Source: Takakia lepidozioides
Lineage: Eukaryota; Plantae; Bryophyta
Direction of reading: 5' to 3'
Length of the DNA: 64,000 nt
Assembly: GCA_030704615.1 (NCBI GenBank)
Contig: CM060734.1
Span: 34,162,001 to 34,226,000 of the forward strand
The translations under genes were made by a program, and so were the position numbers. The notes under the pieces were generated by a model. It worked only from the letters and a program-made list of their open reading frames with translations, was not told where the DNA came from and searched no databases. The first letter of the stretch is position 1. Each line of letters opens with the position of its first letter. This document shows, one piece after another, positions 15,818-56,802 of the stretch.

Positions 15818-15822
15818 GGCGG

Positions 15823-16170
15823 TGTCAAGTTAAATAAGCACAGTGTGAAAACAGCTAGAATAAAACTAGTTATTTGTATTTAACACTTGGATTTAGGTCA
15901 AGTGTTAAATCAGGTGTCAAGTTTAGTTTGACACCTGGTCCGTCTTATCTTCACGAGAGCGGCAGTCGCGCGGCTCATCTTTCTCGAGTTGAGCCTGCGC
16001 GACCGAACTCCTGCATGTGTTTAGATTTGAGTGTGCTTATGTAGGGGTACAGGTTGTTGTGGGGTGGAGTCCCCATAGCTTCGGGTGCCCCTGGCTCGAC
16101 TACTATTTTCTAAGAGTGATGGTTTGGTTTTCATGTTTTGTGTCACAGTGTGTTCGTTGGATTTCTATCA
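15823..16170 (+). repeat. D1 5' terminal repeat A (348 bp)
   Basis: TGTCAAG...TTCTATCA. I count 4 substitutions versus the copy at 26721-27068 (~99% identical). Confidence 0.95.
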
Positions 16171-16184
16171 CTCGAGAAAGATGA
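16171..16184 (+). promoter_or_regulatory. Non-tRNA primer-binding site complementary to the element's own repeat A
   Basis: CTCGAGAAAGATGA directly follows repeat A and is the reverse complement of TCATCTTTCTCGAG at 15975-15988. There is no TGG tRNA-type start. D3 shows the same arrangement. Confidence 0.8.
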
Positions 16185-17034
16185 TCTCTTACCTGTGAGT
16201 GCAAGGTAGGAGTTGAGGGTTAGCACTTGCAAGATTACCTGCGTATAAGTAGTGATTAGTTTGAGAAGCATATCATTGAATGTGACCACAAGATTCAGCG
16301 TGCCCTGAAACGCCTGGAGGATGACGATGCCAGAGCCGCCATTGTTATTGCAGTCGCTGAAGCTACCAAGTCACTAGAGGCTTTGGGGTACACAAGGAGA
16401 TACTTAAAAATGCAGCATCAAATGCTAGTTGGCACCTATGCATGATCCTTGAAGCTGGATGATCGTTTCACCAGTAAGCTTACAGAGGAGCTCTTCTGGT
16501 CTTGTGTGTCATGTCTGAAGGCTTCATTGCATACCACTGATCCTCTTTCAAAGGAACAACCGCTTGACTGTCCAGGCTTTGCAGAATCAGAAGCTTGAAG
16601 TCACAACGAACGATGATGATGATGTGGAACAGTGGGTGGAAGCTTGTCTTCCAAATTTTTGGCAGCAGATGACACTGCAGCGCGGAAAAGAATGCCTTGC
16701 TCGGAAGAAGGCTCTGATCCAACTAGTTGTGTGTATCTGTGACTTGGCAGAGGACTGGGCATAAATGACATTTGGTGGGTCTCAAAAGTGGGTCCACATC
16801 TGAACGTTGTCACTTGGGGCTGCAAGTTATCGTGATTCAGGGGTGACTCTAACTGAATCACCATTGACAAGGACAGTAGTGGCAAGTGCTGTTTAGGGAA
16901 GACACCACTGTGGACAACTTGATTCATGTGATAGAAGGCTAAATACAGCAGTGGTGGGACTAGCCAACAACCGACAAGGCAATCCAGCATGCAGTACCTG
17001 GACAGTTTCTTTTTTTTTTCAAAATGGATTGCAG

Positions 17035-17600
17035 GGATATCAGCAGATGAGAAGGCAAGACTGCTACACTGTGTTGTTGTAGGTGGTGGTCCTACAGGGG
17101 TGGAACTCAGTGGTGAGCTCAGTGACTCATCAGGAGAGACGTCTACGGCTAGTTCGGCCATGTGAAAGATTTTATCCATGTCACACTTATTGAGGCAAAG
17201 GAGATTTTTTTTCATCTTTCGATGTTCGACTCCGGGAGTACGCGACCAGGCACCTGATCAAGGGTTTGGAGGGATAAGCTGGAGGGTCTTAAATGCATAA
17301 CTGTTTTCAGACTGGGGTAAAGCTGATGCAAGATGTAGTCAAGGATGTTCTGCCAGACAAATTAGTGCTTACGGATGGGACGGAGGTGCCATACGGGCTG
17401 CTGGTTTGATCAATGGGTGTTGGATCTTCTTCCTTTGTCCACTCCTTACCTGTGAAGAAGTGCCCTGGTGGAAGCTTGGCAGTTGATCCAGTTACTAATG
17501 GAAGCCCTACCGCAAACAAAGAGTGTTGCTGAGAGACAAGGAAAGTACCTGGGCAAATCTTTGAACAAGCTGGCACAAGCAGGTGGTGGTCAGGCTGGGG
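17035..17600 (+). pseudogene. Captured fragment of a type II (NDA-type internal alternative) NAD(P)H dehydrogenase gene inside D1
   Basis: Translates with frameshifts as [55 protein letters not shown]..[intron-like, ends TTTTCAG at 17310]..[46 protein letters not shown], matching plant NDA1/NDA2 motifs. Confidence 0.85.
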
Positions 17601-18487
17601 TCCTTTTGTAGATATTCTGTGGGCCTTTAATGAGCAAGTGATCCAACCATACTCTAAGCTCAGGCGTTGAGCAGCCTTACAGGTGAATCTATAGGGTCCC
17701 GTGGGAACAATTTCTGCAGCTACACAGGGTGTGTTAGTGGCCTAAGAACAGCTTAGAAATGCTTCAGTGCAAGCCCTGGAAATTGTGGGCGTCAATGCCC
17801 GTTGCAGGAAAACATGAGAGATGCGAATTAGACCAAGTTGATGGAACTTCAAGCTGGTCTTGGCTTTGGATTCCATGCAAAGACGGCCACATCACAGCAG
17901 GCCGCCTGTCCATAAGCCATGAAGGTGCTGCGCAGTGCATCTGCTCTTGAAATCGCCCCAATTCCTGGTTTGTAGTCTCTAGGTCTCGAGGAGGCAGGCC
18001 CACGCGCAGAGAAAAGCAAATCGTGATACCCCACCCAACTGAGGTCGAGTGTTGGAATTAACGAGCTCTTGGTGCCTGGAGAATCCTGGAGGGGAACGAC
18101 CTCGGGAACTCGTAGATAACCTGGGAACAGGTTGTAATGGCAAAAGCGTTTTGGTGTTAAAAAAAAAAAAAACAAAGCCTTTTTGATCTAATTTAAATGT
18201 TTAAAGAGCCTGGTTGGTCATATCTTTGTCAAATGAGCTCCGTTTGACTCAGTTTTTGAGGGGATAGCTGCAGAAAGGGGAAATCTACCTATCTAGACCT
18301 GGTTTCTGTTTTTGGGACTCTGCTAAAAATCTATGGAATTTTAGAGTGTGAGTGTGCCATGAAAGATCCACAATCCTGTCTCTAGAACTTGTGCTGGTCT
18401 ATATTAGAGACAAATCTGTGGATGTACTCCTTGTATGGCTGGGGGAAATGAGGACGTCGTTGAAGGGCAGGTCTCTTCTCTTAGCCT

Positions 18488-19183
18488 GTGCACCAAAGGG
18501 GACAAGATTTATGTTTCCCAAGAACTCAGACTGATTTGAGTGGAGAACAGTTGGACGAGTTGATTGCATACTGGGAGTCAGGCATTAGCAGTAGACAACA
18601 GACTGCTGTAGTTGGCATTGAGGGCCTCAATATCGCCTTGGACAGTCAGAACTCTGTTGGAGCCAGCAGTTCTGCAGCTGTAGGTGAAATACCAAAGTGG
18701 GTGAAAGCTAGGCTTGGAACACAGCCAAAGACAGCCCCGGGGACCAAGGTGTTCAGTCACAAGGCCGTGGTGTACTGGAGCAGAGGAGCAGGAGCTACAC
18801 AAGTTTGTGCAATTAGACAGTGTTGCAGTCGGACACACTCTGCACAAGGCAACCACGAGCGGGGGTTCATTAGCGAGGACAAGTTTGTTCTGTTTGAAGG
18901 CGATGCAGTCATTCGCAATGAAGACACCCGCAACCGTCTCAAAGCTTTCGAGTTGAGAGACTATCAGACCCTACCTTTGTTTTCTTTAGTGTTCAGTGAG
19001 CGGGAGATAGGGGAGTATTGCTTTGTCTCTACCTGGCAGAAAGAGGAGGAGGGTTGGTTAGAGCGAGCTACTGTAGCTTGGGACAAGGTTAGTGGCAGGT
19101 TTCTGGACATAGATATACCTCCTACACCTTACCATCACGCAGAGCGAGGCACTTTGAGAGAAGTCTGGAAGTTGATAGCATAG
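18488..19183 (+). CDS. Accessory ORF of unknown function upstream of D1 gag
   Basis: 231-codon open frame with protein-like composition (YQTLPLFSLVFSEREIGEYCFVSTWQKEEEGWLERATVAWD..). Start codon uncertain; absent from D3. Confidence 0.35.
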   Translation: MHQRGQDLCFPRTQTDLSGEQLDELIAYWESGISSRQQTAVVGIEGLNIALDSQNSVGASSSAAVGEIPKWVKARLGTQPKTAPGTKVFSHKAVVYWSRGAGATQVCAIRQCCSRTHSAQGNHERGFISEDKFVLFEGDAVIRNEDTRNRLKAFELRDYQTLPLFSLVFSEREIGEYCFVSTWQKEEEGWLERATVAWDKVSGRFLDIDIPPTPYHHAERGTLREVWKLIA

Positions 19184-19703
19184 ATCAGGATTAGATCTTG
19201 CTTGGGCGAACTTCTATTCTTCCCCTCCATCTCTGTACTATTTTCATTATCTTGTACTCGTAGTTGCCAAAGCCTCTCTTGGTGGAGGCCAGTCAGTCCG
19301 GGGTTTTGGGCTGGGATATTCTGCAGGATCAGCATTGCAGCTGGATTTTGGTGTGGGGGTGTTGATGTTTTGATTTCTTGTGTTTGGATCCCCCCCAACA
19401 CCTGCATGCTTGACTGTGCGCCATGTTGGTTTTGTGTGGGCGCTTGCTTTCATAGGGATTAGGCCGGATTTGATCACCGGTCAATCCTAGAGTATGCTGT
19501 CGGTGGTGAGGCTGGAGTGATGACCAGCAAGACCACCAGTGTTTCTTCTATGGTGAGGCTGGGTTGATGACCAGCCAACCATAGGAGTTCTTGCGGTGGA
19601 TGCAGGTGCAGGTGCCCTGAGCCATTGGGATATGACCCTTAAAACTGCAACAGGTGCCCACCCGTGTCACTATTAGATTAGTACTAGAGCCTTATAGTGT
19701 CAC

Positions 19704-21734
19704 GTGGAGGAGGTGCACATTGTGAGTGTCATTACGGAGTTACCCAAGGGTGGTGAGGGGAGTACGGCTACAGGCAGTAACAGTGAGAGTGGGTTCACAA
19801 GACGAGGTATTCGGTTCAGACCACCTTCACCGCCACCCTCAATTACTGTAGAGTCAGACACAGACTCGGAGGCTTCATCAACAGGTGTGCACTTTCATTC
19901 GCCATTGTTGTGGGACGACATGGAGGAGATGTATGGAGCTACCAAGGGGCCTCGTAGGTACTCTGGAGCTGTGGGCACAATCGAGTTGGATGACTTTATC
20001 CAGGAGTTCGACAGCTGGTGTGATTTGCAGCAGATGCGCAATCCACAGCTATTCACCCCATTCATGGCGTGGAAGGGACTGTTCCAGCATTTGGAAGGCC
20101 CGCCTATGGACGATTACCACGAGTTCAGGCGAGGACATGAAGCAGAGATTGAGGAGTGGAGGATGTATTGGTCACCTGACTACGTCTCCATTACTCGAGG
20201 CACGACGCGACCAGTAGCTGCATCAGTACCAATAGCTCCCACTGCCAGCACTAGTAGTGGAGCAGGTAGTGCTGGTACTTCTGCAGGTGGTACCAGTTCA
20301 AAAGGTGCTACTACTCCTCCTGCCACAACTACAACACATGTGCCTAGATTCAACCCGGTGGTGGAGTTCTTCCAGGAGTTGCGGAGGAACTACCAAGGTG
20401 TACGGACAGAGAAGCTGCGAAGTTTGCAAGACTTCCAGCGCAAACCCAGTGAGAGCCTGCGAGAGGCGTACACTCGTATGAGGCGCTTGATAAGTGTGAC
20501 CCAAGGGGTTACTGAAGCTCAGGCAATCCAGTTTTGGTATGGAATTCTGGACAAGGAGCTCAAGAGAAGGGTGCGAGATGCAACCCTGTTACAAGCAGCC
20601 CAACCCACATTAGCAGATGTGTTTCTGCTGGCTGAGCGGATTGAGCTCAACATGGTGGAGGAGCGAGTTGTTACAATTGGATTTGGCAAGGACATGCCTG
20701 TACGGGGCACAGCTGTCAGCCCACAAGCACAAGGGACTGCCCAACAGCGTGGTCAGGGGGGCAAGGTTGCCCAGCCCAAGTTCCATGGAGCTTACAGGGG
20801 GCCTCAGGTGCAGAGGCCCGTGGCATCTTTTGCAGGCCAACAACAACCAGGGGTGATATGTTGGACATGTGGAGGACCCCATGTCAAGAGAGATTGCCCA
20901 GAGAGTGGCAGAAGGCCGGCACAAGCACAGCCTGCACAGTTGCAGTGTGGGCATTGTGGCAAGTATGGGCATGGAGATGCCCAGTGTTATGACTTGCATC
21001 CTGAGTTGCGCCCAGGCCAGTTCCAAGGGAACAATGGTGGCCGGGGGCGAGGTGGACCAGCCCAGAGAGGACGAGGTGGTCGGGCACGAGGTGCAGGCCA
21101 AGGGCAAGCTCAACATGGCCAAGGACGCGGAGGTCAGGGCGTTGATCAAGGCATGGCCAACCGGCTTCAGCAGCTAGAGCAGAGGCTCGCTGCCATGGCT
21201 ATAGCTCAGGCGGTACCGGCTCCCAGGCGGGATGGTCCACCTCCTGCTCCTGAGGGAGGAGATATGGGAGGCATGGGATTTATGTGCGGAGCAGCACTAC
21301 CACTAGAGCAGGTGGAGTCTGCTGCAGCCGTGACTCGAGGAGCAGCACGAGTTCCTGAGCCACGAGGTGCAGAGGTGGAATTGGATCCACAGCGTGGGGA
21401 GGCAAGCCGTCAGGCAAGGCTTCCTCAGTCATTCACATTGGCGGAGACTGTGTCGACGCCATCCATGGCACCTAGTTCTCGCCCGACTGTTACCGAGGCG
21501 GAGGTTACTATGCCATTGGGGAGAGCTACACGTGCAGCATTGACTCCTGCTGCCAAGGCTAGTGCGGCCGGTGTGTTATTGGGGGCAGCCACCTCTGTGT
21601 GTCAGGCCCCACTGTTCTCGGCAACAATGATTGCGACGCCGGGGGTGAGACCAGCTGCAGTGTTCAGACTAGCAGCAACACTCTGTGAGAGTGGGGAGGT
21701 CACTTCATCTTCTGCGGAGTTAGTGGAAGTGTAG
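19704..21734 (+). CDS. D1 Gag (retrotransposon gag domain, two CCHC knuckles, RGG-rich region)
   Basis: Contains LQDFQRKPSESLREAYTRMRRL..QAIQFWYGIL, and knuckles CWTCGGPHVKRDC and CGHCGKYGHGDAQC. First in-frame ATG is at 19920. The 1-nt frameshift at ~21730 is not shared with D3. Confidence 0.88.
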   Translation: MEEVHIVSVITELPKGGEGSTATGSNSESGFTRRGIRFRPPSPPPSITVESDTDSEASSTGVHFHSPLLWDDMEEMYGATKGPRRYSGAVGTIELDDFIQEFDSWCDLQQMRNPQLFTPFMAWKGLFQHLEGPPMDDYHEFRRGHEAEIEEWRMYWSPDYVSITRGTTRPVAASVPIAPTASTSSGAGSAGTSAGGTSSKGATTPPATTTTHVPRFNPVVEFFQELRRNYQGVRTEKLRSLQDFQRKPSESLREAYTRMRRLISVTQGVTEAQAIQFWYGILDKELKRRVRDATLLQAAQPTLADVFLLAERIELNMVEERVVTIGFGKDMPVRGTAVSPQAQGTAQQRGQGGKVAQPKFHGAYRGPQVQRPVASFAGQQQPGVICWTCGGPHVKRDCPESGRRPAQAQPAQLQCGHCGKYGHGDAQCYDLHPELRPGQFQGNNGGRGRGGPAQRGRGGRARGAGQGQAQHGQGRGGQGVDQGMANRLQQLEQRLAAMAIAQAVPAPRRDGPPPAPEGGDMGGMGFMCGAALPLEQVESAAAVTRGAARVPEPRGAEVELDPQRGEASRQARLPQSFTLAETVSTPSMAPSSRPTVTEAEVTMPLGRATRAALTPAAKASAAGVLLGAATSVCQAPLFSATMIATPGVRPAAVFRLAATLCESGEVTSSSAELVEV

Positions 21735-22640
21735 TGGCAGAGGGATCCTCGGATTTGAGGGTCAAGACTGCCACGGCTGCGCCATGGCAAGTTGCAGCTG
21801 CCAGGTTGACGGAGCTGCCAGCTAGGCCAGCCATTGAGCGCGCCATGGTGACACCTGGAGTTGTCTTGTTAGACAACCAGGGAGGCATTTTCACTTTGAG
21901 TGGACCGGCAGGCAAGAAGTACCGGCCACTGCGGGTCTTGTTGGACTCAGGAGCTCAGCCACTGATGTTGGGCAGAGCTGCTATTGCAGGTTTGGGCCTC
22001 ATGGAGGCGGATATGGAGCCTTGTCCTTTCCAGATACAGACATCTCTGGGAGGATCAGAGCAGGCTCGCGGCATGACACGGCATCAGTTGGCTATTAGAC
22101 TGCAGCCGGATCATCCTGTAGATGGCTCAGTGATGCGAGCCAAGGCCATTGTGACAGACGCGGTCTCTTACGATGTCCTCGTTGGTGGGGCAGTGTTATA
22201 CCCCATGGGCTTCACCCTGGATTTCTGGGAGGAGTCAGCATCCTACAGGCCTGGATGGCAGTCAGGGGATGGTCGCCGTGCACAGCTCCCTGTGACATTC
22301 ATTGGGGGTATTGCAGCTGCCCAGCGGGGCAAGATGCCAACACTAGCCGCCTTCACAGCTGCCGTTAGTTGGCCTGGAGAGTTGCTGGAAGGCAATGCCC
22401 ATGCAGAGGATGTGCCACCTCCAGCAGAGCAGGATGACATGCATGGTACGGCGGAGTTGCCTGCCATGGTTGCTCACACCCCGTTGTGGGGTACGAGCAA
22501 GGATTTGCAGCAAGCTGCTGATGGACGGGTGCAACAAGCTTGGGAAGAAGCTTTTGTACCGTCAGGAGAGGAGGAGAGTGCGGTGATTGCACCAGGGCCA
22601 CCTCAGTTGTCGCCATTGGACACCACACCTCTTGTGGGCA
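21734..22640 (+). CDS. D1 aspartic protease region (frameshifted continuation of the polyprotein)
   Basis: RVLLDSGAQPLM active-site motif and a distal YDVLVGG..L motif. Confidence 0.85.
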
Positions 22641-22647
22641 GCGGCCG

Positions 22648-23903
22648 GATGAAGGCATTTGCCTTCTGGACTTGTTTGGCGGGATCAGCACCGGATTGGC
22701 TGCTGTGCTACAGGCAGATGTGCGGGTAAGGCGTTACCTGTATGTGGAGAGGGATGAGACTGCACGACGCGTCTCACTGCGCCATGTGGCTCAGTTGGTA
22801 CAGCAGTACCCTGACTTGTTGCCTGTGTCTGCAGTTCGTGGATACCAACAAGCCTTGCCAGCAGACATTTCCTTGTTGGGGGCGCAAGATTTGGAGCAGG
22901 TTGGCTCCATTGATCTGATAGTGGCAGGTTGGCCCTGCCAAGGGCATTCATCAGCCGGGCATGGCAATGGATTGCGAGACTCGAGGACGGGTCTGTTTTG
23001 GGAGATGGTGCGGATTTTGCGCTGCTTGCAGCTTCATCAAGCTGTATCTCCAGCATACATCTTGGAGAATGTACCATTGATGGGTGATTCTCGGGCCAGG
23101 GTGATGGCCAGTGTGCATCAAGTCCGGTCGTGGCTTGGGTCAGCAGTGTTGCTGGATGCAACTGCAGTGGGGTCACGGGCTCATCGTCCACGACTATGGT
23201 GGACTAACTTGATGCCACCCGCACTGCTCAAGCGTGCATTTGATGGGGTGCAGCGGCCAGCACACCTCACCGTGGATGGCATTTTGGACACAGGAAGGCA
23301 GTCTCAACGTGTGAGACACGATGACCGTTCGCCTTTGGCCGTGGTCAACAGGGTGGGTCAACCACGAGCAGCATTACCTACACTGCTCAGCTTCCCGGAT
23401 CCCATGCTTTTCGGGATGGTGGACCTGGCCTCCTGTGGGATGCTCAGTTGCAGCAGTTAGTGGAGCCTAATGCCGACGAGCGAGAGCGGGCTATGGGGTT
23501 TTCCACTGGGACCACGGTGGTGCCTTCTCTTTCTGAGGCATCACGTCGTCAGGTGTTGGGGCAAGCAATGGATCTCAATTGCTTGACCTGGATTGTCAGC
23601 TTGGCTATGGCTGAGCAACGTAGAGTGCGGAGTGCACTTCCCTTGACGGTCTCTCTGCCTACCGAGACGGTACAGGCAGCGAGTGGGGGCGAGCCGGTGA
23701 GGACCACGAGGTGTAGACATCCATGGCACATGTGGGAGGTGCTCGAGGTTCAGAGGGAGTTGGCAGCGAAGGCAGCTGTGATGGATGAGGTTGGGGATTC
23801 TTCTCGGGATGAGGAGGTTCTCAATGATGAGATGATGGGGCAGGATGAGGCCTTGTCATTGACTGAGCAGGAAGGGGGTACTGCTCAAGAGGTTGCAGCA
23901 TAG
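22648..23903 (+). CDS. D1 C5-cytosine DNA methyltransferase domain (one frameshift at ~23397)
   Basis: Motif I LDLFGGISTG; II YVERD; IV AGWPCQGHS (catalytic PC); V GLRDSRTGLF; VI ILENVP; VIII AHRPRLWWTN; IX EPNADERERAMGF; X RRQVLGQAMD. Confidence 0.93.
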
Positions 23904-24025
23904 CAACCACGGGACGCGTCCTCTACCTCTAAGCCCACTGGACTTAAGGTTGCAGTTACGGAGGACAATTGGGAGCCTGACATCCCATTGTCACCGGAGG
24001 AGAGAGACGACGTATACGGCGGTTC

Positions 24026-26374
24026 CTGAGGGCTTATAGGAATTGCTTTGCCTTCAGTTTGAAGGACTTGGGAGCACTGAAGGGTCAAGAGATCCGTATT
24101 GAGTTGGCCACTGACACGCCAATCTTTCGGAGACCCTATAGATACAGTGACATGGAGAGGTCTTTGATTCAGATGAGGACTCAAGATCTCTGGGAGGCAG
24201 GTTTGGTGGAGCTCTCTGGTGGAGAGTATGCTTCAGCCACAGTGATGCCAGCTAAGAAGGATGTCTATGGCAATTGGACGGAGAGACGTATGTGCGGTGA
24301 TTACCGGCCTGTAAATCGTCAGACCAAGTCCGATAGGTATGCCATGCCAACACCAGAGGAGATCTTTGATGCCATTGGGCATTCCAAGGTCTTTAGCACG
24401 TTGGATTTACGATCCGGATATCACCAGTTGCCGATCAAGGAGGCGGATAAGCAAAAGACGGCATTCTGGGGGATCAATGAGCACGGGAAGGATTGCCTAT
24501 ACCAGTGGCGGTTCTTACCATTTGGGCTTAAAAACGCTCCCGCTGAGTTTCAAAGAGTCATGGACAGGATTCTAGCAGGGGTGGAGTTTGCTCGGTGCTA
24601 CATAGATGACATCATCATCTTTAGTGCTACGGTGGAGGAGCATGAGAGACACCTTCAGGGGGTATTTGAGCGCTTGAGGACGCACGGATTGAAGTTACAT
24701 CCGGGCAAGTGCAAGTTTTTCCACAACCAGATTGAGTATCTGGGTCACATGATATATCCTGGAGGATTGGGGGTACAGCAGACTAAGGTAGAGTCCATTG
24801 CACAGGTTCCACGCCCCACGGATGTGAGCCGAGTTCGAGCTTTCATGGGGTTAGCAAACTATTACAGACGGTTTGTTAAGGGATTTAGTGCCATTGCAAA
24901 GGCTCTAACCAGGCTGACCAAGGTGGACCAGGAGTGGCAGTGGGAAGATGAGCAAGAACAAGCTTTTCAAGAGCTCAAGGCGAGGTTGACCTCGGCGCCC
25001 ATCTTGAGACGACCTATCAGGGGGCGTCCTTTTCAGCTGCATACAGATTGGAGCATGCTGGGGCTTGGAGCGGTGCTCACACAGGTGGATGATGAGGGAA
25101 GAGAGTTCGTAGTGGCTTATGCTAGCCGCTCGAACAATGCTGCAGAGTCTAAGTATAGCTCATATGAGGGAGAATGCTTAGCTGCAGTGTGGGCCGTGGC
25201 ACACTTCAGGTGCTATTTATACGGCAATCTCTTCACCCTTGTCACGGATCACCAACCACTCAAGTGGTTGATGGAGTCAGACAAGCTTACGGGGAAGCTT
25301 GCACGGTGGGCACTCATCCTTCAAGAGTATGACTTTCAGGTGGTGCATCGACCGGGTTTGGTCAATCGCAATGCAGATGGGTTGAGTCGCAATCCATGCA
25401 CGAGCCAGCAGGATGACACTGGAGCTCGGTGGCATGGTGAGACGGACGAGGAGATGGTGCCCGGATGGCATGCATCTGCATTTCTGTGTATCTTGGCAGC
25501 GGAAGGCCAGGTTGGACCTGCAACAGGGATGACTGTGGATCAAGTGTCTGAGGACCCTGAGGCCAGCAATGAGCAAGGTGGCGCCAAAGATATACATGAG
25601 GATTCAGCTGTGTTGGACTATCTTCGCACTGGAGACACGGCAGCCACTGTGACTGCCAAGGAGAGGGATCGGATCCTACAACGAGCCAAGAGGTTCAAGT
25701 GGGAGGGGACACACCTGCTCCGAGTGTGGGAGGATGGTCGAGTGAGGATTGTGCCTCACCCAACACAGCGGGCACGGTTAGTGCGGCATGCCCACGAGGA
25801 GTTGGGGCATTTTGGGGTGCGACGCACCCATAGCCTACTGCAGGGGCAGTATTGGTGGCGTGGTATGCACACAGAGGTGCAACAATTTGTGGCTAGGTGC
25901 ATGGTGTGTGACAGGGTGCGTGCTTCATTCAACGCCCCTACTCCACAATTGCACCCTCTTCCGATCATGGGATTGGGCTACAGGTGGAGTCTTGACTTCG
26001 CACGGCCGTTGCCACTGACCATGCGCCACAACAAGTACGTGTTGGTGATGGTGGAGCACTTCTCCAAGTGGATTGAATTGGTTCCATTGCCTGATAAGGC
26101 TAGTGAGGGAGCTGCGTATGCATTCTTGGATTGTGTGCTTAGCCGATTCGGTGCTCCAGCTGAGGTACTCACGGACCAAGGGAGAGAGTTCTTGGGGGAG
26201 TTTCAGGCTTTGTGTGACAAGGCCTTGATAGACCACCGCACCACTTCTCGGGATCATCCTGAGGCCGATGGCTTGGCAGAGAGAGTTGTTCAGACAGTAA
26301 AGAGGGGTTTGCGCAAGTATGGCTTGCAGATGGTTCCAGATGGGGATTGGTTATGTCCACAATGCATTGGATAG
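24026..26374 (+). CDS. D1 Pol: reverse transcriptase, RNase H, integrase, and the C-terminal remnant of a PHD finger
   Basis: RT motifs [34 protein letters not shown] motifs LHTDWS, EGECLA, VTDHQPL. IN motifs HEELGH..CMVC, SLDF, TDQG, AER. Ends VPDGDWLCPQC. Confidence 0.95.
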   Translation: MRAYRNCFAFSLKDLGALKGQEIRIELATDTPIFRRPYRYSDMERSLIQMRTQDLWEAGLVELSGGEYASATVMPAKKDVYGNWTERRMCGDYRPVNRQTKSDRYAMPTPEEIFDAIGHSKVFSTLDLRSGYHQLPIKEADKQKTAFWGINEHGKDCLYQWRFLPFGLKNAPAEFQRVMDRILAGVEFARCYIDDIIIFSATVEEHERHLQGVFERLRTHGLKLHPGKCKFFHNQIEYLGHMIYPGGLGVQQTKVESIAQVPRPTDVSRVRAFMGLANYYRRFVKGFSAIAKALTRLTKVDQEWQWEDEQEQAFQELKARLTSAPILRRPIRGRPFQLHTDWSMLGLGAVLTQVDDEGREFVVAYASRSNNAAESKYSSYEGECLAAVWAVAHFRCYLYGNLFTLVTDHQPLKWLMESDKLTGKLARWALILQEYDFQVVHRPGLVNRNADGLSRNPCTSQQDDTGARWHGETDEEMVPGWHASAFLCILAAEGQVGPATGMTVDQVSEDPEASNEQGGAKDIHEDSAVLDYLRTGDTAATVTAKERDRILQRAKRFKWEGTHLLRVWEDGRVRIVPHPTQRARLVRHAHEELGHFGVRRTHSLLQGQYWWRGMHTEVQQFVARCMVCDRVRASFNAPTPQLHPLPIMGLGYRWSLDFARPLPLTMRHNKYVLVMVEHFSKWIELVPLPDKASEGAAYAFLDCVLSRFGAPAEVLTDQGREFLGEFQALCDKALIDHRTTSRDHPEADGLAERVVQTVKRGLRKYGLQMVPDGDWLCPQCIG

Positions 26375-26618
26375 TGGGAGTGGATACAACCATGGGAGGC
26401 TAACAAGCAACGCAAGGCCCAGCTACAGGAGACCTTGAATACACGAAGTCCTGGCTCAAGTTCACAGATTGCAAGACGGCGACTAACGATGGGGCTACTC
26501 TTGTACCCGGCCTCTTGGTCTATAGAGTTTGAGTGCGATAGGGACAGTGATACAGGACTTAGTACGGCTATGGCTATTACGTCTTGTAGCTATCTGGAGG
26601 TAGAGGGACCTATCCACC

Positions 26619-26632
26619 AGCTAGGGGGGCGA
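26619..26632 (+). promoter_or_regulatory. D1 polypurine tract
   Basis: AGCTAGGGGGGCGA immediately precedes repeat B. The equivalent lies at 39692-39704 (minus) in D2. Confidence 0.75.
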
Positions 26633-27154
26633 TTGTGGTAAACTACTTTATTGTGCATATATGTGTGGTGTGGTTTGGACAGCGATGTAGTTGTGTAGCG
26701 ATATGTATGCGCACGACAGCTGTCAAGTTAAATAAGCACAGTGTGAAAACAGCTAGAATAAAACTAGTTATTTGTATTTAACACTTGGATTTAGGTCAAG
26801 TGTTAAATCAGGTGTCAAGTTTAGTTTGACACCTGGTCCGTCTTATCTTCACGAGAGCGGCAGTCGCGCGGCTCATCTTTCTCGAGTTGAGCCTGCGCGA
26901 CCGAGCTCCTGCATGTGTTTAGATTTGAGTGTGCTTATGTAGGGGTACATGTTGTTGTGGGGTGGAGTCCCCATAGCTTGGGGTGCCCCTGGCTCGACTA
27001 CTATTTTCTAAGAGTGATGGTTTGGTTTTCATGTTTTGTGTCACAATGTGTTCGTTGGATTTCTATCATTGTGGTAAACTACTTTATTGTGCATATATGT
27101 GTGGTGTGGTTTGGACAGCGATGTAGTTGTGTAGCGATATGTATGCGCACGACA
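26633..27154 (+). repeat. D1 3' terminal block B(86 bp)-GC-A(348 bp)-B(86 bp)
   Basis: The two B copies are identical (TTGTGGTAAAC...GCGCACGACA). The B/A junction GACAGCTGTC is a perfect palindrome; the A/B junction is TATCA|TTGTGG. Confidence 0.95.
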
Positions 27155-27876
27155 GCGGTACCCAAGTTCACTTGTTCAAAAACAGAGGAAGGCCCCCATT
27201 CATCGGCATGAAAAACCAACCTGTCCTATTTTACGCGTTCATGAACGGTAAACGGAGGAACGCCCCAGTCAGCTGCCCTTCACCGACGTAAAAAGATCAA
27301 CTTGGGCCCCCATAAGACCTCATCTTACGAATTTCGTAAGGCACTAGATGAACTACGCCTGATGTAATGTACGTCGTCTGGTCAAGATGAAAACTTCCCG
27401 TCTAAGAAGTTAAGATTTTTTTTAAAAAAAAATTTCTAGGCGATTTTTTCCAGTTATTTCAAGCTCCGCTCATGAGTTTGAGGACATCAAAATTAAGTGT
27501 AGGGTGGAATTTCCAGGAGTCTTCCAGGCTGGAATCCAGAGTGGGCGGAACACTTTGGTAGTTGGAACACTGTGATCCATGTGGATGGGTGAATTTCCAA
27601 GTGGGTTTTTGGAGTTTCCAAGAGCAATGTTGGGAAATGGATCATAGTGTTCCAACATCCACAGTGTGCGGATAGATTGCTCTTGGGAACTCCAAAAACC
27701 CACTTGGAAATTTTGTCATGCAGGAAACCCACAACATACCTCAAATGGATCACTGCCAATGAAATTGTTAGGGAATATGTGGGCAAAATCTTAATAGTTC
27801 ATAATCTCCACCCTCTAAGGTGACACATTCTAACAACAGCGAGTGATACTAGGTCTGACTTCTCCGGTTCGTTAAA

Positions 27877-33122: not shown

Positions 33123-36100
33123 ATGTCGTTGCAGGGCATACACATTCCAACCTTAGCCCAGTGTCGTGGTGGGTCGACTGAGGAGGACTTCTTCAGTGGA
33201 TTTGTTATGGAGGGCCGGCCACCTCACCAGCAAGAAGACAGCGACCAGGAGAGCTATTTGGCGAGGATTCTGCGGACACTTGACCAAGAGACTGCTGTGT
33301 CTCAACCAGCACCGGTGGTTTCATTCGAGCGATCTACATCTTATACAGCGGGAGAGACCTATAGCCAGAATATACACTATCCTTCTTCCTCGTCCCAGCG
33401 GATCCCTTGGCATTTTATCGACTCATCGCCCGACACAACTTTTGTGACAAACCCGCAAGCTGGACAGCAACTCTTTGCAGGCGTTGCGCCAAACTGGCGA
33501 CCCACCCCGGCGGCTAGCCATACGATTAACTTCCAACAAGACCTACTCTCTGATGAATCGTGGTTCAATGAAGACTTCGAGCAACGGACAAGCAAGCATG
33601 TAACCGTACCATCAAGCCAGGCAATGCCAGATGTTAGCCCAAGCTATCCCAGGTTTGAGTCGCTTTATCAGGACCCACGTCAACCGTTTGGAGGACCCAG
33701 TGGGGAAGGCAGCTCTCTCAGTGAATTCAAACCCTTAGAAGTGGAGTATCGATCCAATGTGCAGGGATCCCAGTCGGCACAGGGGATTGGGCAGTCCTTA
33801 GAAACCATGGCACCTCAACTTCAGCGAAGCACGCCTGTATCGGAACCGCTTTATGCAATGTTGAGCGAAGCACAGCCTGCATGGGATCAATTATCAATGC
33901 TCCCCTCTCGGCTTCTTGAGGCCTCCCTACCATATACGTCCGCGGTAAGCTTGCCTCATCGTGCCCCATCTCCATTATCCGTAGCTGGAACTACCAACTC
34001 TGGTACACCGGTCTCCGATTCCCTGTCGTCCTCAACCAGCGAGGGACCAGATGAGTTAGACAGCAAAAATATCCAGGTACCTGGAGGAGGGTCTGCTGGT
34101 GAGGCCACGGCCATGTCTAAGAGCAGTGGGAAAAGGAAGACGCCAGAGCTGGAGGAAAGTGAAGCCGAACGGGATGCAAAACGGCAGCAACCGATGTAAG
34201 CGAATTCGTCCTTCCTATTCGTTCATGCCATGTCTCTTTTGATTGCTGTCTTGAGAGTTTGAACATTGCTGAAAAAGGGCAGAACAGAGGGTTTAGTTAG
34301 TCTTTATAGTTGCTGCCAGATGAGTCTTTATACAGCTAGAAATGCAAGGAGACATGATTTTGAATATGTATATGAAAGATGTACAGGAGCTGTATTTTCC
34401 TAGATTCGAGGGTGAGCCTTGAGGTCACTTGAATCCTTCGAGCAAGGGGCTCTTAACCGAACTATTATACATCTGCCACAAAAAACCAGGCCATTTCCAG
34501 TTTCTTCGATTTGGTCGACCACAGTATTCTCGTTATGAAGGATACAGACCGACAATGTTGCTAGGATAGGCGAGGTTGATGTCAGGCACCTGGGATATCA
34601 GCTCTCTAGTGTCTTCTCTTGAGTCCACCATTTATTTTTTCCGGAGTTCCTCCAGGGATTCATTGCGTGCTCTCTGGTTCCTTCATCCCTACATTCTTAA
34701 GAGATACGTTTTCTACTCTAACTGGACTTTCTCTGTTTCTTTAGACTGCTTCTGCGCCGTTTCCCTTGTCGAGATTAATAAAGCGACTGAAGTTCTGGTT
34801 AGGTCTGGGTACAAGACTTGTTTAATGCTGATTGTTATTTTGGAGGGCACTCATCATCTGCAGAACTAGGCAGCGTAAGAAGGCTGGGATGAAGAGGGTG
34901 CGAGAGCCCAGATATGCTATCAAAACAAGGACTGATGTCGACATCATGGATGATGGCTTCAAATGGAGGAAGTATGGCCAAAAAGCTGTGAAAAACAGCC
35001 CCCATCCAAGGTACCTGCAATGATCATTCTGGTGTGGATACATTGGTCAGAACTAAGTTATCTAGTAATATCTAGAATTGAACGAATTTGACACTCTTCT
35101 CTGTCCAAACCCTCCTTCAAAAAACGGATCTCCTTAGATATTTTCATGAAAGCCCGTACTCCATAAATGGGTTGTTTCCCTGATCAGAGAATTTGCAAGA
35201 AAAAACATCTTGCTTAATTTTTCTTGGACAAAAGAAACACTAATAATCAGGAGAGATCATGCAGCTATTAACCCGAGTACATTGTTCTACATGCATACCT
35301 TGAGTCCAGTGGAATCAGTTGATAAACGTTCTGAATACCATGGTGCTTATATAGAATCTATGGTTTTTGGACATGTTTCATCGCATAGACGGTCTCCAGC
35401 TTTCAAGATACTTTGAATTGGTTTGAACTCTTGAAACTGCTACTTGAATGCAACTCCCGGAAAATGTACGGTTTAAGAACTGGTTAAAATTTTCTAGAAA
35501 TTTGGACATCTGATTTCTGCTTGCACATATTATCATGTCTGTAAGTATTTCTGGTCTAGCAAATACATGTTGGAGACATCATGCATTGTCTGGACTTCTT
35601 AGCTGACTAAGTTAAACTTCTATACATGCAGAAATTACTATAGGTGCACCACACCCAATTGTCCGGTTAGAAAGCGCGTTGAACGTTCATTTGAAGATCC
35701 TGCTTTGGTGATTACAACATATGAAGGCACACACATACATGAAACTCCAGGGTTTCATCGTACTCCAGCGGGTGGTTACTTTGGCGGTTTTGGTAGTGGA
35801 ATGATTGCGCCAGGTCAAAGTCTCTTGGCTCCCTACGTCACCCTTGGCAGCTCAAGCCAGCACCCTTTTTTGCAAAGAGGAGTTAATATGTCAAGTTTAC
35901 TGCAAGCCCAGGGTCCACGCCCAGCCTTAGGCGGCAGTGCCTTGCAAGAACACCCCCCACAACTTGGGGCCTTGCAAGAGAGCCTCCTTAGAGCACACCA
36001 GTTACTCAGGTTGCAGGAACAGCTCGGATCTGTGAAGCAGGAACCATTTCAATTCGCAGCTCAGGATATGCTTGCTAGATCAGACCAGCTACACTTACGT

Positions 36101-36481
36101 AGACATGTGTTGGATACTTCGGAAGAACAAAGTATTGGGCAAATTGGAGATCTCGAGCTTAGAAGTGCTCCCCCCGGCTTAGCTACAGGCATAGATTTCT
36201 CTAGTCTACCTCAGCAGATCACAAACATCAGATCAGACCAACTCAACACATATAGACCTCAAAATCAGACACTAGGTGGTAGCCATTCATTCATTGGCCC
36301 TGGTGGCCAGCAAATTATTGTCAGAGGTCAGGATCTCATAGGAGGCCAACAAGGCCCCAGAGATACCACTGAAGATCAGTTACGTAGTGTTAGTCAGGAG
36401 AATGCGGCAACAACTGATCATGAAGGGCTTCTTGGGGATCTGGTCCGACCTGCCGATCCTCATACAGGCAGACCTTTATAA
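33123..36481 (+). CDS. WRKY: Group IIc-type WRKY transcription factor, 3 coding exons (33123 or 33207-34195, 34864-35010, 35632-36481)
   Basis: [40 protein letters not shown]|[36 protein letters not shown] (C-X4-C-X23-H-X-H), with the canonical phase-2 intron in the PR codon. GT-AG junctions join in frame. Start codon ambiguous. Confidence 0.93.
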
Positions 36482-39021: not shown

Positions 39022-41475
39022 TGTCGTGCGCATACATATCGCTACACAACTACATTGCTGTCCAAAACCACACAACATATGTGCACACCACAGTATACCA
39101 CTAGTCCACCACTAGTCCAGCCACTAGTCCAACCACTAGGCTGCCACTAGTCAGTCACTAGGCTGCCCACTATGGCAGTTACTAGTCCACCACAATGATA
39201 AAGAAGAAGAATACAAGTACAAGCTCATGCGAGCTCACAAAGCTGAAGCATAAACTCATGCATATATAAACTCATCACTCAAATACAAGTCAAGCCAAGT
39301 GCACTCCACGCCATGGGGAATCCACACTACGGCGCCATAGCTAGGCGCGGTGAGGCTCAACTCGAGACAGATGAGCCTCCCGCGCTTGCCGTGAAGATGA
39401 CCACCTCAGGGCCTAAATCTGCCTTGACCCCTGATTTGACACTTGGGCCAATCCCAAATGTCAATATGTAAAAGCTAGCTATTTCCTAGCTAGTTCACAC
39501 TAGTGGTGAAATAACTTGACAACTACCATGCGCATACATATCGCTACACAACTACATCGCTGTCCAAAAACCACACAACACATGTGCACACCACACACTA
39601 GTATACCACCAGTCCACCACTAGTCCAACCACTAGGCTGCCACTAGTCAGTCGCTAGGCTGCCTACTATGGTAGTCACTAGTCCACCATAATCGCCCCCT
39701 AGCTGGTGCTTAGGTCCCTCTAAGTCCAAATAGCCACAAGATGTGATAGTGACTGTAGCCTCACTAAGTCCTCCACCACTGTCCCTACTACAGTCAAACT
39801 CGATAGATCAAGAGGCCGGGTGCAAGAGTTGCCCCATCGTCAGTCGCCGTCTTGCAACCTGTGAACTTGAGCCTGGGATCTCGTGTATTGACTCCTATGA
39901 GCTCGGCCCCATATGTCTTGCTAGTTGCCACTAGTCATATCTACTACCACTATCCCAAGCAGTGTGGACATAACCAATTTCCATCAGGAACCCTCTCAAG
40001 AGGTGGTGTCAAGCATCCCATGTGCCCAACCTCTTGAGCATTGATCACACACCAACATGGTGGTTGCCCCTTTGGCAGACCCACAGAGCATGCACCTCAA
40101 ACCTGCAGGTACCACTGCCAAGTTTGGGTCAACTCTATCATCGACATTGAGGTGACATGGCGCACAATTACCCACATGGTCTTTCCAAATCATGTCATCC
40201 TGACCCTCCAAGATCAGGACTCCTGAGGGCAACACCTCTCAAACCCTCAGAATAACACGCCCTGCAGTGACATCCAGGGTCGTAGGAGTAGAGTGTTGCA
40301 AATAAACATAGTCACCAGGGCTAAACCTCCGAACCCCAAGACGATATCCTCCACCACGTATAGTGGCATACCTCAACATATCACGGTGTTGTGCAATGGC
40401 AAGGTTCTCAAAAGCCATGGGCATGACTTTCTTGAACAACTCTGCACGCTGATCACATGCACGTACCCATATGTCCGGATCGTCAAGGTTAAGGACTTGA
40501 GCAGTGTCTCTATGAATGGCTGTAGGCAAATCCGGCTCTCGGCCAAAGAGAAAAAAATATGGTGAGAAGGAGGCAAGTGATGCTTGTTTGCTGAACCGAT
40601 AGCCCATGGCTAACCAAGGTACCTGAAGATCCCAATCTCCTAGGTGTCATTTCTGCAAGCCATACTTGCGCAAACCTCTCTTCGCCGTCTGAACAACTCT
40701 CTCTGCCAAGCCATCGGCCTCAGGATGATCCCGAGAAGTGGTGCGGTGGTCTATCAAAGTTTTATCACATAAAGCCTGAAACTCCCCCAAGAACTCTCTC
40801 ACTTGGTCCGTGAGTACCTCAGCTAGAGCACCGAATCGGCTAAGCACACGATCCAAGAATACATATGTAGCCCCCTCACTAGCCTTGTTAGGCAATGGAA
40901 CCAACTCAATCCACTTGGAGAAGTGTTCCACCATCACCAACACATATCTGTGGTGGCGCATCGTCAGTGGCAACGGTCGTGCGAAGTCAAGACTCCATCT
41001 GTAGCTCAATCCCATGATTGGTAAAGGATGCAACTGTGGTGTAGGGGCGTTGAATGAAGCACGCACCCTATCACACACCATACACCTAGCCACGAACCGT
41101 TGCACCTCTGTGTGCATACCACGCCACCAATACTGCCCCTGCAGTAAACTGTGAGTGTGTCGCACTCCAAAATGCCCCAACTCCTAATGGGCATGCCGCA
41201 CTAATCGTGCACGCTGTGTTGGGTGAGGCACGATCCTCACCCGACCATTCTCCCACACTCGAAGCAGCTGTATCCCCTCCCACTTCAACCTCTTGGCTCA
41301 TTGCAGGATCCGATCCCTCTCCTTGGCAGTCACAGTGGCTGCCATGTCTCCCGTGCGGAGGTAGTCCAACACAGCCGAATCCTCATGTATATCTCTGGCA
41401 CCACCTGGCTCATCACTAGCCTCAGGGTCCTTAGACACTCCGTCTACAGTTATCCCTGTTGTAGGTCCAACCTGA
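39022..41475 (-). mobile_element. Element D2, 3' part (DNMT-Gypsy family): integrase, PHD finger, PPT, B-A-B terminus
   Basis: B at 39022-39195, A at 39196-39521, 2-bp spacer, B at 39524-39691, then PPT. The integrase ORF 40647-41180 is nearly identical to D1. The IN C-terminus and PHD span ~39951-40646. Confidence 0.9.
39951..40100 (-). pseudogene. PHD finger at the C-terminus of D2 integrase (1-nt frameshift)
   Basis: After removing one G: CMLCGSAKGATTMLVCDQCSRGWHMGCLTPPLERVPDGNWLCPHC, a canonical C4HC3 finger with W two residues before the last CxxC. Confidence 0.88.
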
Positions 41476-47963: not shown

Positions 47964-49525
47964 TGAGAGGGTGGAAAACTACGAGGAAGAGAAGCTAAAG
48001 CAATGCCTAACCTCAGCATGCCCTCATCCCAACACTCTTCCTCTCCTCTCTTCTCTTCCTTCCATGACCATGGGAATATCATGAAGATACTCCTCAAACC
48101 GCCCTCCACGAACTTCGAAATTTGGCCTTCAAGACCACATGCCAGTCCTCAGGCAATCCACCAGTGCCTCCACGAGTCAACACAGGCCATCCACAGGTCA
48201 ACACGGGCCACCACAGACCAGCATAGGCCCACACAGATCACTAGTCACAGCCGTCACAGCCGCACACAGGCCACAGCCCCACAGCCCATCACAGCCCCAC
48301 AGGTCATAGGTCACAGCCTGTCACAGCCCGTCACAGCCTCAAAGGCCACAGGGCACAGCCTATCACTGCCAGTCACAGTCCGTCATAGCCCATCACAGCC
48401 CCACAGGCCACAGGCCACAGGTCACAGCCCGTCACAGCCCCACAGGCCACAGGCCACAACCTATCACAGCCCTACACAGGTGATAGGGTCACAGCATCAG
48501 AGGCCACAGCCTGTCACAGCCTGTTACAGCCCATCACAGCCCCACAGGCCATAGGTCAAAGCCCGTCACAGCCGGTCACAACCCCACATGCCACCTGTCA
48601 CAGCCCATCACAGCCCCACAGGCCACAGGTCACATCTTGTCACAGCCCGTCACAGCCCCAAAGGCCACAGGACAGCCTGTCACAGCCCGCCACAGCCAGT
48701 CACAGTCTGTCACAGCCCCATAGGCCACAGGCCACAGGCTGTCACAGCCCTACACAGGTCATAGGGTCACAGCCCCATAGGCCACAGCCTGTCACAGTCC
48801 ATCATAGCCCCACGGGCCACAGGTCACAGCCTGTCACAGCCCCAAAGGCCACATGGCACAAACCATCACAGCCTGTCACAGCCCGTCACAGCCCCACAGG
48901 CCACAGGGCACAGCCTGTCATAGCCTATCACAGTCCATCATAGCCCCACATGCCACAACCCGTCACAGCCCATCCATGGCCGTTCATGGCAGTTTAGTCA
49001 TTTCTCCAAAGGGTTTAGCCACGCCAAGCTAGGGTTTGTGTCTCTTGGACTCTAGGCTTCTTTGCACCGAGCTATAGCGGCTGTGAGGAAATCAGCAAGG
49101 TATTCTTGCTCTTTATGGCTCCCACACACCACCAATAGTATCTCTAATTCCAAAGGAAGATGTTTGCAACCAAAACTAAGTGCACAAGCTTCATTTTAAC
49201 TCACAAAACAACGCCATTGATCCCTATGGCGACTAACCAAACATGGCTGATTTCCAGCCCTTGTAGGCACTCATTCACGCGCTTTTCTTGACCATAGCAC
49301 GCCCCTTCGCACCTAATCCTGCCCCTGCACCTGCTGCTTCAAGAGTTGTGCTCCCTTCAAGCTTGAAGTTGAAACCCCAACTCACATATGCCCTACAAGT
49401 GCTTTTCTTTCACCCCAAGTGGAAACCAGCCCTAGCCCTTCCATTCTAGCTCTCTAAAGCTTGAAAACAAGAGCCTCAATGGGTTGAAGGCATGCTCCAC
49501 ACATGCCCCACTCTCACCATAAGAG
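47964..49525 (-). mobile_element. 5' internal (leader) region of a DNMT-Gypsy family copy (probably D2), inverted relative to D3 58226-59555
   Basis: Reverse complement of the D3 leader (e.g. GAGAGGGTGGAAAACTACGAGGAAGAGAAGCTAAAGCAATGCC; CATGCTCCACACATGCCCCACTCTCACCATAAGAG). Confidence 0.85.
48240..48975. repeat. Degenerate (GTCACAGCC/CACAGG)n minisatellite in the DNMT-Gypsy leader
   Basis: Dozens of CACAG-core units; the complementary array is at 58770-59310. Confidence 0.85.
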
Positions 49526-49757
49526 TGTCAAGTTATTTTACCACTAGTGTGAAGTTAGCTAGAAAATAGCTAGCTTTTATATATTGACATTTGGGATTGA
49601 CCCAAGTATCAATCCAAGGGCCAATACATGTTTGGGCACCTGACGTTGTTATCTTCACGGCAGATCGCGGTGGGCTCATCTTTCTCGAGTTGAGCCTCAC
49701 CACGTCTAGCTATGGCGCCGTAGTGTGGATTCCCCATGGCGTGGGGTGCACTTGGCT
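49526..49757 (+). mobile_element. Element D4: truncated repeat A of the DNMT-Gypsy family, inserted in the D2-type leader
   Basis: Begins TGTCAAGTTATTTTACCACTAGT with no B upstream, contains GCTCATCTTTCTCGAGTTGAGCC, and is fused at CTTGGCT/CCTGGCT to an unrelated RT. Confidence 0.85.
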
Positions 49758-54900: not shown

Positions 54901-55456
54901 GCAGCGGATGGCGGAAGCTCCAGTCTTGAAAATCCCGGAGTTCAATCGTCCGTTCGAGATTCATACAGATGCATCGGACTTCGCGATTGGGGGTGTACTG
55001 ATGCAAGATGGATGTCCAGTGGCTTACGAAAGTAAGAAACTGAATGAAGTGGAGCAACGGTGGCCGACGCACGAGAAAGAGATGAAGGCGGTGGTGCACT
55101 GTCTTGAGCTTTGGCGCCACTATGTTGGTTCCAACCCAGTGAAGGTGTTCACGGACAATGTCACGGTGAAGTATTTTGCCACGCAGCCCAAGTTGTCCCC
55201 AAAACAACTTAGGTGGCAAGATACTTTGGCGGTGTTCGACGTGGATATCCAGTACAAACCGGGACGGGACAACGTGGTGGCCGATGCTTTAAGTAGAAAG
55301 CAGCAGCTTATGTTGGTGTACAGGGGCGAGACGGCGCTCCAAAGGAAGATCCGGAAGGCTTGCCGGAAAGATGAGCTGGCGAAGTCCGTGATGCAGGACT
55401 TGAGGATGGGGGTTAAATCGCAGTTCCACTTGCAAAATGGATTGCTACACTACCAG
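51928..55456 (+). mobile_element. Chromovirus-type Gypsy 'C': 5' LTR (51928-52664), tRNA-iMet PBS (52667-52678), gag, PR, RT, RH; integrase missing at the breakpoint
   Basis: LTR TGTCGCGG...GCACGACA; PBS TGGTATCAGAAC. Gag WLLELERYF..LRGYAQQWW; PR LLVDTGASHSF; [18 protein letters not shown]; RH IHTDASDFAIG. GAAAT lies upstream at 51923-51927. Confidence 0.9.
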
Positions 55457-56080: not shown

Positions 56081-56802
56081 TGTCGCGCACCTCACTTCGG
56101 TAAGCTCCCTCTTCAAGTCATAGGTACTCGCTTGATGCGCGCGCCTAACTCCCAACCTGGCCGCCGGGCCAACTTGGAGCTCCGGCTGCTCACCGAGGCA
56201 TAACGGTCCCCCTTTGATCCCCCAAAGAACCCTCCAATGATTTGGGACCAGCGGAATTCCCTTTGGTAGTTGGCAGTCCGGAACAGCTCCCCACTCTTTG
56301 GTCGCTTTCCGGCTCGCTCGCTTACTCACTAGTTTTTGGTCACCAACGGGCTTGCACCGTTCTCGGGGTTACTACTCCCTATATATACTTCTGTAGCTGT
56401 CCGTGGGGGTTTCACAAACAACCATGCCATTTTATGGCGAACCACCACGAACACCCTCGACTCTCGGTGATGAGTCGCGGTGAGTCTTGGCCACCCACCA
56501 CGGCCCCCTATGGACCGTGATGAGTCCCAAGACTCCCCACGACTCCCACCACGAGGTCTCCGCCCAGGGTGAGTCCTATGCCACCCCCACTAAGTCCCGC
56601 TAAGCTACCACCCCCTTGTGGAGCCACCCCCACCGCAACCCGGTGTGCGGGGCTCCACCTAGTGAGCGCCTCCGCCTCCTTGAGTGCCTTAGGCACTCAA
56701 GGGTGCTTCAGCCCCCCATACCTATCGCTACCACTGCCCCCACCACAGGGGCAGCCCCTCTTGTGTCCCGACCCCCTGCCCTCAAGGCAAAGGGCCGCGA
56801 CA
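56081..56802 (-). repeat. 3' LTR of element 'C' in inverted orientation, with its PPT at 56803-56818
   Basis: Reverse complement of 51928-52664. On the minus strand, TGTTGGTAGGGGTGTG precedes it and GAAAT follows it. Confidence 0.92.

Follow-up and report, generated by a model that had tools for sequence, protein, structure and literature searches.

A DNMT3-bearing Ty3/gypsy retrotransposon of Takakia with split repeats, a predicted self-primer and a candidate attachment site inside the LTR

Results

A Ty3/gypsy element with a DNMT3-like domain

The window, that is, the whole 64-kb stretch of Takakia lepidozioides DNA that we analyzed, contains an element (E1, 15823-27154) whose reading is broken over several frames, as well as the relatives E2, E3, and E4 (Table 1). 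The domain order of E1 is gag, protease, RT, RNase H, and integrase, the gag and protease matches falling below the cut-off. Its best PDB match is the Ty3 Gag-Pol, and its integrase is made of rve and H2C2 domains and is of the DDE type; no tyrosine recombinase family was found in the frames scanned. The methyltransferase, split over two frames, matches the Marchantia protein P0038 at 69%. The closest named relatives are liverwort proteins (Calypogeia at 77%, Riccia, and Marchantia), followed by Klebsormidium and Closterium, the Klebsormidium proteins being 43 to 46% identical to the RT-integrase frame. The complete relatives P0005, P0024, and P0080 end in a PHD finger and have no chromodomain, and E2 retains a partial PHD finger. 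E1 belongs to the Ty3/gypsy retrotransposons, carries a DNMT3-like domain, and is related to KnitGypsy-Dnmt3.

Table 1. Features of E1 and its relatives in the window (positions in the 64-kb stretch)
Feature	Position	Strand	Remarks
E1 left target-site duplication GCGG, 4 bp	15819-15822	+	matches 27155-27158
E1 repeat A1	15823-16170	+	starts with TGTC (left attachment end), ends in CA; promoter-side U3, R, U5; 98.9% identical to 26721-27068
TATA-like TATCTTC	15946-15952	+	31 nt before A15977; putative role, from position; aligns near TATAAA of the L002 family
E1 motif hairpin	15965-16003	+	predicted, -25.2 kcal/mol; 5' arm 15965-15977 upstream of predicted start
E1 predicted self-primer	15977-15988	+	RNA nt 1 to about 12; complementarity covers 15975-15989
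LTR segment able to pair with both PBS flanks	16111-16122	+	candidate Tf1-like pretzel; 12 pairs, shuffling P = 0.015
E1 PBS	16171-16184	+	flush with A1 end
Hairpin directly after PBS	16186-16215	+	-14.4 and -14.9 kcal/mol for folded stretches
gag frame	19698-21734	+	PF03732, E = 0.002, below cut-off; in relatives, tblastn matches precede pol
Protease-like frame	21689-22729	+	PF13975, E = 0.016, weak
C5-cytosine methyltransferase, DNMT3-like	22522-23903	+	two frames; PF00145, E = 2e-13; best PDB matches DNMT3A
RT, RNase H, integrase core	23981-26374	+	E1 without integrase C terminus including PHD finger
Polypurine tract	26623-26632	+	directly before B1
E1 repeat B1, true U3 start	26633-26718	+	ends in GACA; identical to B2 (86/86)
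Palindrome GACA-GC-TGTC	26715-26724	+	predicted internal attachment site; B1/A2 joint; halves equal the two ends of the element
E1 repeat A2	26721-27068	+	second motif/hairpin copy at 26863-26901
E1 repeat B2	27069-27154	+	flush with A2 end; GACA end is right attachment end
E1 right target-site duplication GCGG	27155-27158	+	
E2 3' end	39022-39701	-	polypurine tract; B1 39691-39524; A2 39521-39196; B2 39195-39022; motif with one substitution
E4 truncated repeat A	49526-49757	+	motif 49678-49689; no PBS
E3 repeat A1	56920-57241	+	
E3 motif hairpin	57054-57095	+	predicted self-primer 57068-57079
E3 PBS	57242-57257	+	E3 continues beyond window edge

Several other sequences lie within or near these elements. 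The long leader of E1 contains a pyridine nucleotide-disulphide oxidoreductase-like fragment (16935-17165, plus strand; PF07992, E = 8e-4, below the cut-off), which is probably captured host sequence and has no match in the leader of E3. Leaders belonging to the E2/E3 subfamily and containing a 10-nt tandem array were found at 47964-49525 (minus strand) and 58226-59554 (plus strand), the minus-strand one ending at the repeat-A fragment of E4. A 95% inverted repeat (51928-52664 and 56081-56802) flanks the gag-RT-RNase H of another gypsy element (52654-55297), whose RT shares about 40% identity with that of E1, and a host WRKY transcription factor exon (PF03106) lies between E1 and E2 (35603-36481, plus strand). 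The 5' end and PBS of E2 were not found in the window, nor did the 64 kb contain a tRNA gene or any Rfam match. In the related loci L074, L077, and L078, two family members meet head-on, inverted, just past the PHD finger.

Split repeats and the route of integration

By comparing the repeats, we found that E1 and six related loci share the layout A…B-A-B. Two whole LTRs at the element ends were not found: B is absent before A at all 17 of the 5' ends that retain their own upstream flank, and none of these 17 shows the A-B-A expected from a symmetric 2-LTR circle. Because the polypurine tract precedes B1, the LTR produced by reverse transcription should consist of B plus A. The outer ends of the element read TGTC…GACA, and both halves meet inside the LTR as GACA-GC-TGTC, a palindrome that retains its 2-nt spacer in each of 20 B1/A2 joints, with transitions typical of methylated C. 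Of 10 independent sites, 6 show an exact 4-bp target-site duplication (E1, L009, L015, L053, L064/L071, and L068), two have one mismatch, and another two have two mismatches; a 5-bp duplication did not fit.

The two kinds of joint behave differently. The A2/B2 joint unites the U5 end with the first base after the polypurine tract in 10 of 16 insertions and carries indels in the other 6, versus none in the 20 B1/A2 joints (Fisher P = 0.004, or P = 0.052 without three losses of 1 to 2 nt that could be slippage); L066 (B-A, no B2) and L073 (truncated A2) are excluded from this count. B1 and B2 of E1 agree even in two bases rare in the family, and among decayed metagenome copies, B2 matches its own B1 best in just 3 of 8 and 1 of 3. 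At one joint (L009, 10838-10858), about 18 extra bases are present, and 11 of them recur 37 nt upstream in A, a pattern resembling templated end joining.

On these grounds, we lean toward integration through the palindrome inside the LTR rather than through the cDNA ends. Reverse transcription would give a normal cDNA with an LTR of B plus A, the integrase would act on the GACA-GC-TGTC palindrome within the upstream LTR, and host end joining would link the U5 end of the cDNA to the U3 start, before or after insertion, leaving A…B-A-B. The upstream LTR is the first to become double stranded during reverse transcription, which could explain the lack of A-B-A…B insertions. It seems unlikely that the layout was instead made as in PAT or Ngaro, or inherited from a transcript running through B2, with no internal attachment site. 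Either origin would account for the missing A-B-A 5' ends, and PAT, TOC, and Ngaro do carry the same A1-B1-A2-B2 split direct repeats (PMC4157794), but these are tyrosine-recombinase elements, and the element described here instead encodes a DDE integrase, with no tyrosine recombinase in the frames scanned, and has TG…CA ends, a 4-bp duplication, a polypurine tract before B1, and a PBS after A1, with the A2/B2 joint falling at exactly those boundaries.

Copies of the form A…B were considered separately, 12 independent loci ending in B only. We rejected them as proof of 1-LTR-circle integration: L064 (3981-13650), with B-A-B, and L071 (536-9666), with B only, have the same flanks and duplication, so the B-only form may arise later or by assembly collapse.

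A motif in repeat A is complementary to the PBS

A short motif within repeat A pairs with the PBS that follows the repeat. Both pairings claimed by a sequence-only reading of this DNA proved exact, as 15975-15989 is the reverse complement of 16170-16184 in E1 (15 nt) and 57064-57080 that of 57241-57257 in E3 (17 nt). Chance is excluded as an explanation: the best PBS complement in 5,000 dinucleotide shuffles per repeat reached at most 10 nt for E1 and E3, and a match as long as the real one never occurred in these 5,000 shuffles or in 2,000 each for L004, L053, and L071. The 3' end of the motif was also said to land at the repeat boundary; the identity between the two A copies of E1 stops at 16170, the PBS runs from 16171 on, and the 15th pair involves the last base of the repeat (16170). 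All five A copies of the window hold the motif, at 15973, 26871, 49674, and 57064 on the plus strand and at 39376, with one change, on the minus strand, and the PBS follows only the two 5' copies. Where strong divergence of the rest of A had been stated, E1 and the other subfamily are about 71% identical in A over the first ~175 nt.

To the family of the window, a scan of metagenome contigs for relatives (the best 80 of 336 were used) added four more families represented by contigs showing repeat and PBS. Between any two of the window, L002/L043, L053, and L004 families, the predicted 12-nt primers differ at 4 to 8 of 12 positions, and each primer is the exact complement of the PBS of its own family. 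For L002/L043, the pair was assembled from two copies of one family because the match in cis survives in only one of six 5' copies (L044), the other five having deletions, an insertion, or decay. The fifth pair, of L029, has 16 nt of complementarity. Five families thus have five different but complementary pairs, and none of the five PBS types begins with TGG. The contigs L004, L018, and L029 read PPT-B-A-PBS and were treated as collapsed assemblies and used for motif and PBS only, although this order may represent tandem copies; the L018 contig turns back on itself where the PBS lies.

A quick RT tree was made from 51 rows, without labelled chromovirus references, with support from SH-aLRT alone and with the root at the midpoint. 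In it, the five families fall on both sides of the root, and the Klebsormidium rows form their own branch among them. No relative of the element was found in viral contigs, and the motif pattern had no match in viral and prokaryote contigs.

The motif lies at the predicted transcript start

Judging from promoter spacing, the motif most likely represents the 5' end of the element's transcript. The usual distance from TATA box to start is 29 to 32 nt. The first A of the motif is located at TATAAA+32 in all nine L053-family 5' copies examined, two of which represent a single site, and the motif starts 29 to 31 nt after TATAAA in the L002 family and 29 nt after TATAAT in L004, so that three of the five families show TATAA-to-start spacing. 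L029 has no TATA at -30, and the window offers only the noncanonical TATCTTC, 31 nt (E1) and 28 nt (E3) before the motif start. In the window, the complementarity begins 2 to 4 nt before the predicted start, which leaves the start position uncertain within a few bases.

A hairpin that may mask the motif

In both E1 and E3, the motif is embedded in a predicted hairpin, which in E1 begins at 15965 and not at 15966 as first read. Most bases of the motif do lie in the loop (12 nt, 15978-15989), but the first three lie within the 5' arm. The outer stems differ between subfamilies and each pairs with itself (-23 to -31 kcal/mol). Inside the window, the covariation suggested earlier is weak: across 10 copies of two families, none of the inner 6 stem pairs is changed on both sides, and among 4 window copies only 1 of 12 consensus pairs is, with a covariation term of 0. 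We therefore rejected hairpin covariation as evidence within the window. Across the families, an upstream arm able to pair with the motif, or with the bases 3' of it, is present in four of five, the L053 family having none, and the unrelated arm sequences of L004 and L029 suggest that the arm is kept as a structure across families.

Inclusion of the arm strongly affects the predicted motif-PBS pairing, which changes from 0.72 to 0.01-0.08 in E1, from 0.99 to 0.04 in L044, from 0.82 to 0.00 in L004, and from 0.83 to 0.11 in L029 when the RNA contains the arm rather than beginning at the predicted start. For E3, the values are 0.20 from A57068, 0.72 from T57066, 0.02 from 57054, and 0.39 to 0.55 from two starts further upstream; L053-family copies give 1.0, 0.84, and 0.17 (L057) from the predicted start. 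Because the 5' arm lies upstream of that start, the hairpin would be confined to the 3' copy or to an upstream-started RNA. Rather than the switch in the priming RNA envisaged earlier, it is better viewed as a mask that may keep the 3' motif copy and any upstream-started RNA off the PBS.

Other structures were noted in the same region. The pretzel candidate of E1 has a counterpart at the equivalent place in E3 (shuffling P = 0.02), and the pairing is absent in four of four copies of two other families. The hairpins after the PBS (16186-16235 in E1 and 57255-57300 in E3) have different stems and common loop bases, and a 7-mer common to E1 and E3 just downstream complements the loop, a possible pseudoknot. 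By eye, two short palindromic stems with changed sequence are present in the U3 part of A in both subfamilies (15880-15936 and 56976-57033).

Predicted self-priming and its alternatives

Taken as signals in the sequence, these features make it very probable that the element primes reverse transcription in the manner of Tf1, from about 12 nt at the 5' end of its own RNA and without a tRNA. The motif at the RNA 5' end would fold back onto the PBS of the same RNA, and the element's RNase H would cut after about nucleotide 12, producing the primer. The right cDNA end predicted from the A2/B2 joint coincides with the first PBS base, where the primer 3' end would lie, and 10 of the 16 joints are flush. 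The tRNA-independent priming proposed from the first reading gains support from the five different motif/PBS pairs without a TGG-initial PBS. That reading had left two options, a cleaved 5' end and the transcript 3' end; we prefer the former because the motif starts 29 to 32 nt past a TATAA box in three families, and the latter is disfavored by its lack of an R region.

Variation in sequencing runs also bears on the pairing. In contigs placed at an 88% identity cut-off, run X2 reads T15981 as C in 81% of its depth, and C also occurs in X7 and X8; a C in most of the depth had first been noticed at 26879, the A2 twin of this position. The compensatory G stated beforehand for the partner A16178 was not seen at an 8% threshold in X2, the only one of four runs that covered the PBS, where its depth is about one-seventh of that at the motif. 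The test is weak, because E3-like subfamilies (83% across the PBS) fall below the cut-off and the PBS is covered by a single run. The E2 motif copy has G at the position equivalent to 15981, suggesting that a mismatch there may be tolerated.

A variant of Tf1-like priming would have the RNA start upstream of the hairpin, near 15965, with the hairpin as a true switch and with two cuts or a longer leader. We regard it as very unlikely. The complementarity does enter the 5' arm by 2 to 4 nt in the window and by 3 nt in L004 and L029, the window TATA is noncanonical, and four of five families have an arm, though of differing sequence; however, the TATAA boxes of L004 and the L002 family lie only 11 to 18 nt before the arm, too close for a start there, and the L053 family has no arm.

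It is also highly improbable that the transcript 3' end, carrying the A2 motif copy, loops back and primes at the PBS, even though both A copies hold the motif and the motif 3' end matches the first PBS base. Strong-stop transfer needs an R acceptor, and the 3' end of an LTR-element RNA is blocked by poly(A). With the start at the motif, an RNA ending there would have no R acceptor, its poly(A) tail would block the end, and in four of five families the upstream arm is expected from the folding to mask the A2 motif. Very unlikely, too, is a host tRNA, half-tRNA, or small RNA as primer, with the LTR motif as a by-product or regulatory decoy: tRNAs are used by most plant LTR lineages, Phygy and Selgy included (PMC6317226), and the compensatory G at A16178 was not seen, but no PBS type starts with TGG, and PBS and LTR motif change together across families, which a single host primer does not explain.

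Discussion

The element resembles Tf1, Tf2, and the Tf1/sushi group, to which plant Tcn1 belongs, in that its PBS directly adjoins the LTR and is the complement of 11 to 12 nt of the LTR that are predicted to form the 5' end of the RNA, and in its Ty3/gypsy domain order. It differs from them in its DNMT3-like domain, 4-bp rather than 5-bp duplication, split repeats, and putative masking hairpin upstream, and in the PHD finger at the end of its relatives. For Tf1, self-priming is established; the element described here would prime in the same way and yet falls outside the group when a chromodomain is taken as the criterion. In Tf1, the first 11 RNA bases pair with the PBS and are removed by RNase H (PMC7175516; Tf1-type self-priming is also treated in PMC4600332 and PMC5341516). 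The three-duplex pretzel structure described for Tf1 (10.1101/2022.12.06.519325) is seen weakly here, and only in the window family. Among plant lineages, 83% of Tcn1 and 89% of TAR (copia) elements are predicted to be self-primed (PMC6317226), and no priming signal was found in SM-Tcn1 (PMC2864245). Phygy and Selgy are tRNA-primed, Phygy with tRNA-Trp (PMC6317226); we rejected Phygy, which has a 4-bp NCGN duplication, as a counterpart, since it uses this tRNA and the duplications here show no NCGN rule.

Like the element described here, KnitGypsy-Dnmt3 of Klebsormidium nitens has a gypsy pol with a Dnmt3-like domain, and it combines DIRS-like A-coding-B-A-B repeats with gypsy domains; our element differs in that its relatives are bryophyte-like. 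The legend of Fig. 4c in de Mendoza et al. (2018, PMC5890265) notes that the KnitGypsy-Dnmt3 repeats are arranged as in a DIRS element, and the text of that paper and three supplementary files make no mention of its priming, attachment site, or duplication. A preprint of 2026 refers to streptophyte Gypsy-DNMT3 in passing (10.64898/2026.05.21.726589). We found no paper on priming or attachment sites in the DNMT3-gypsy clade in the literature searched, a body that stops short of subscription papers and Repbase reports.

Precedents for the proposed integration step come from other systems. In IS3 and IS911, junction intermediates are used, and a DDE enzyme acts on a palindromic CA…TG junction. 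The nearest precedent is foamy virus, whose DDE integrase acts on such a junction in double-stranded DNA, cleaving palindromic LTR-LTR junctions (PMC1180852). In both cases, the junction is formed from two ends, whereas here the palindrome is encoded in U3 and the cDNA ends would come to lie inside the integrated element.

The REXdb survey, in the part consulted, lists no self-primed non-chromovirus gypsy lineage (PMC6317226), so the priming proposed here, if true, would be a further and possibly independent origin of self-priming. On balance, we favor the broader view that a widespread streptophyte Ty3/gypsy clade, marked by DNMT3 and a PHD finger, combines self-priming outside the chromoviruses with an attachment site inside the LTR, and that its competent copies are circular permutations. 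In this clade, the element ends would be misplaced by standard LTR finders. The integration route suggested above offers a mechanism for the DIRS-like repeats of KnitGypsy-Dnmt3, which were noted earlier but left unexplained. Use of the internal palindrome by the integrase, if real, would make joined or circular cDNA productive here, which bears on whether 2-LTR junction forms integrate; it would also mean that an LTR element can integrate by a route that does not use its cDNA ends.
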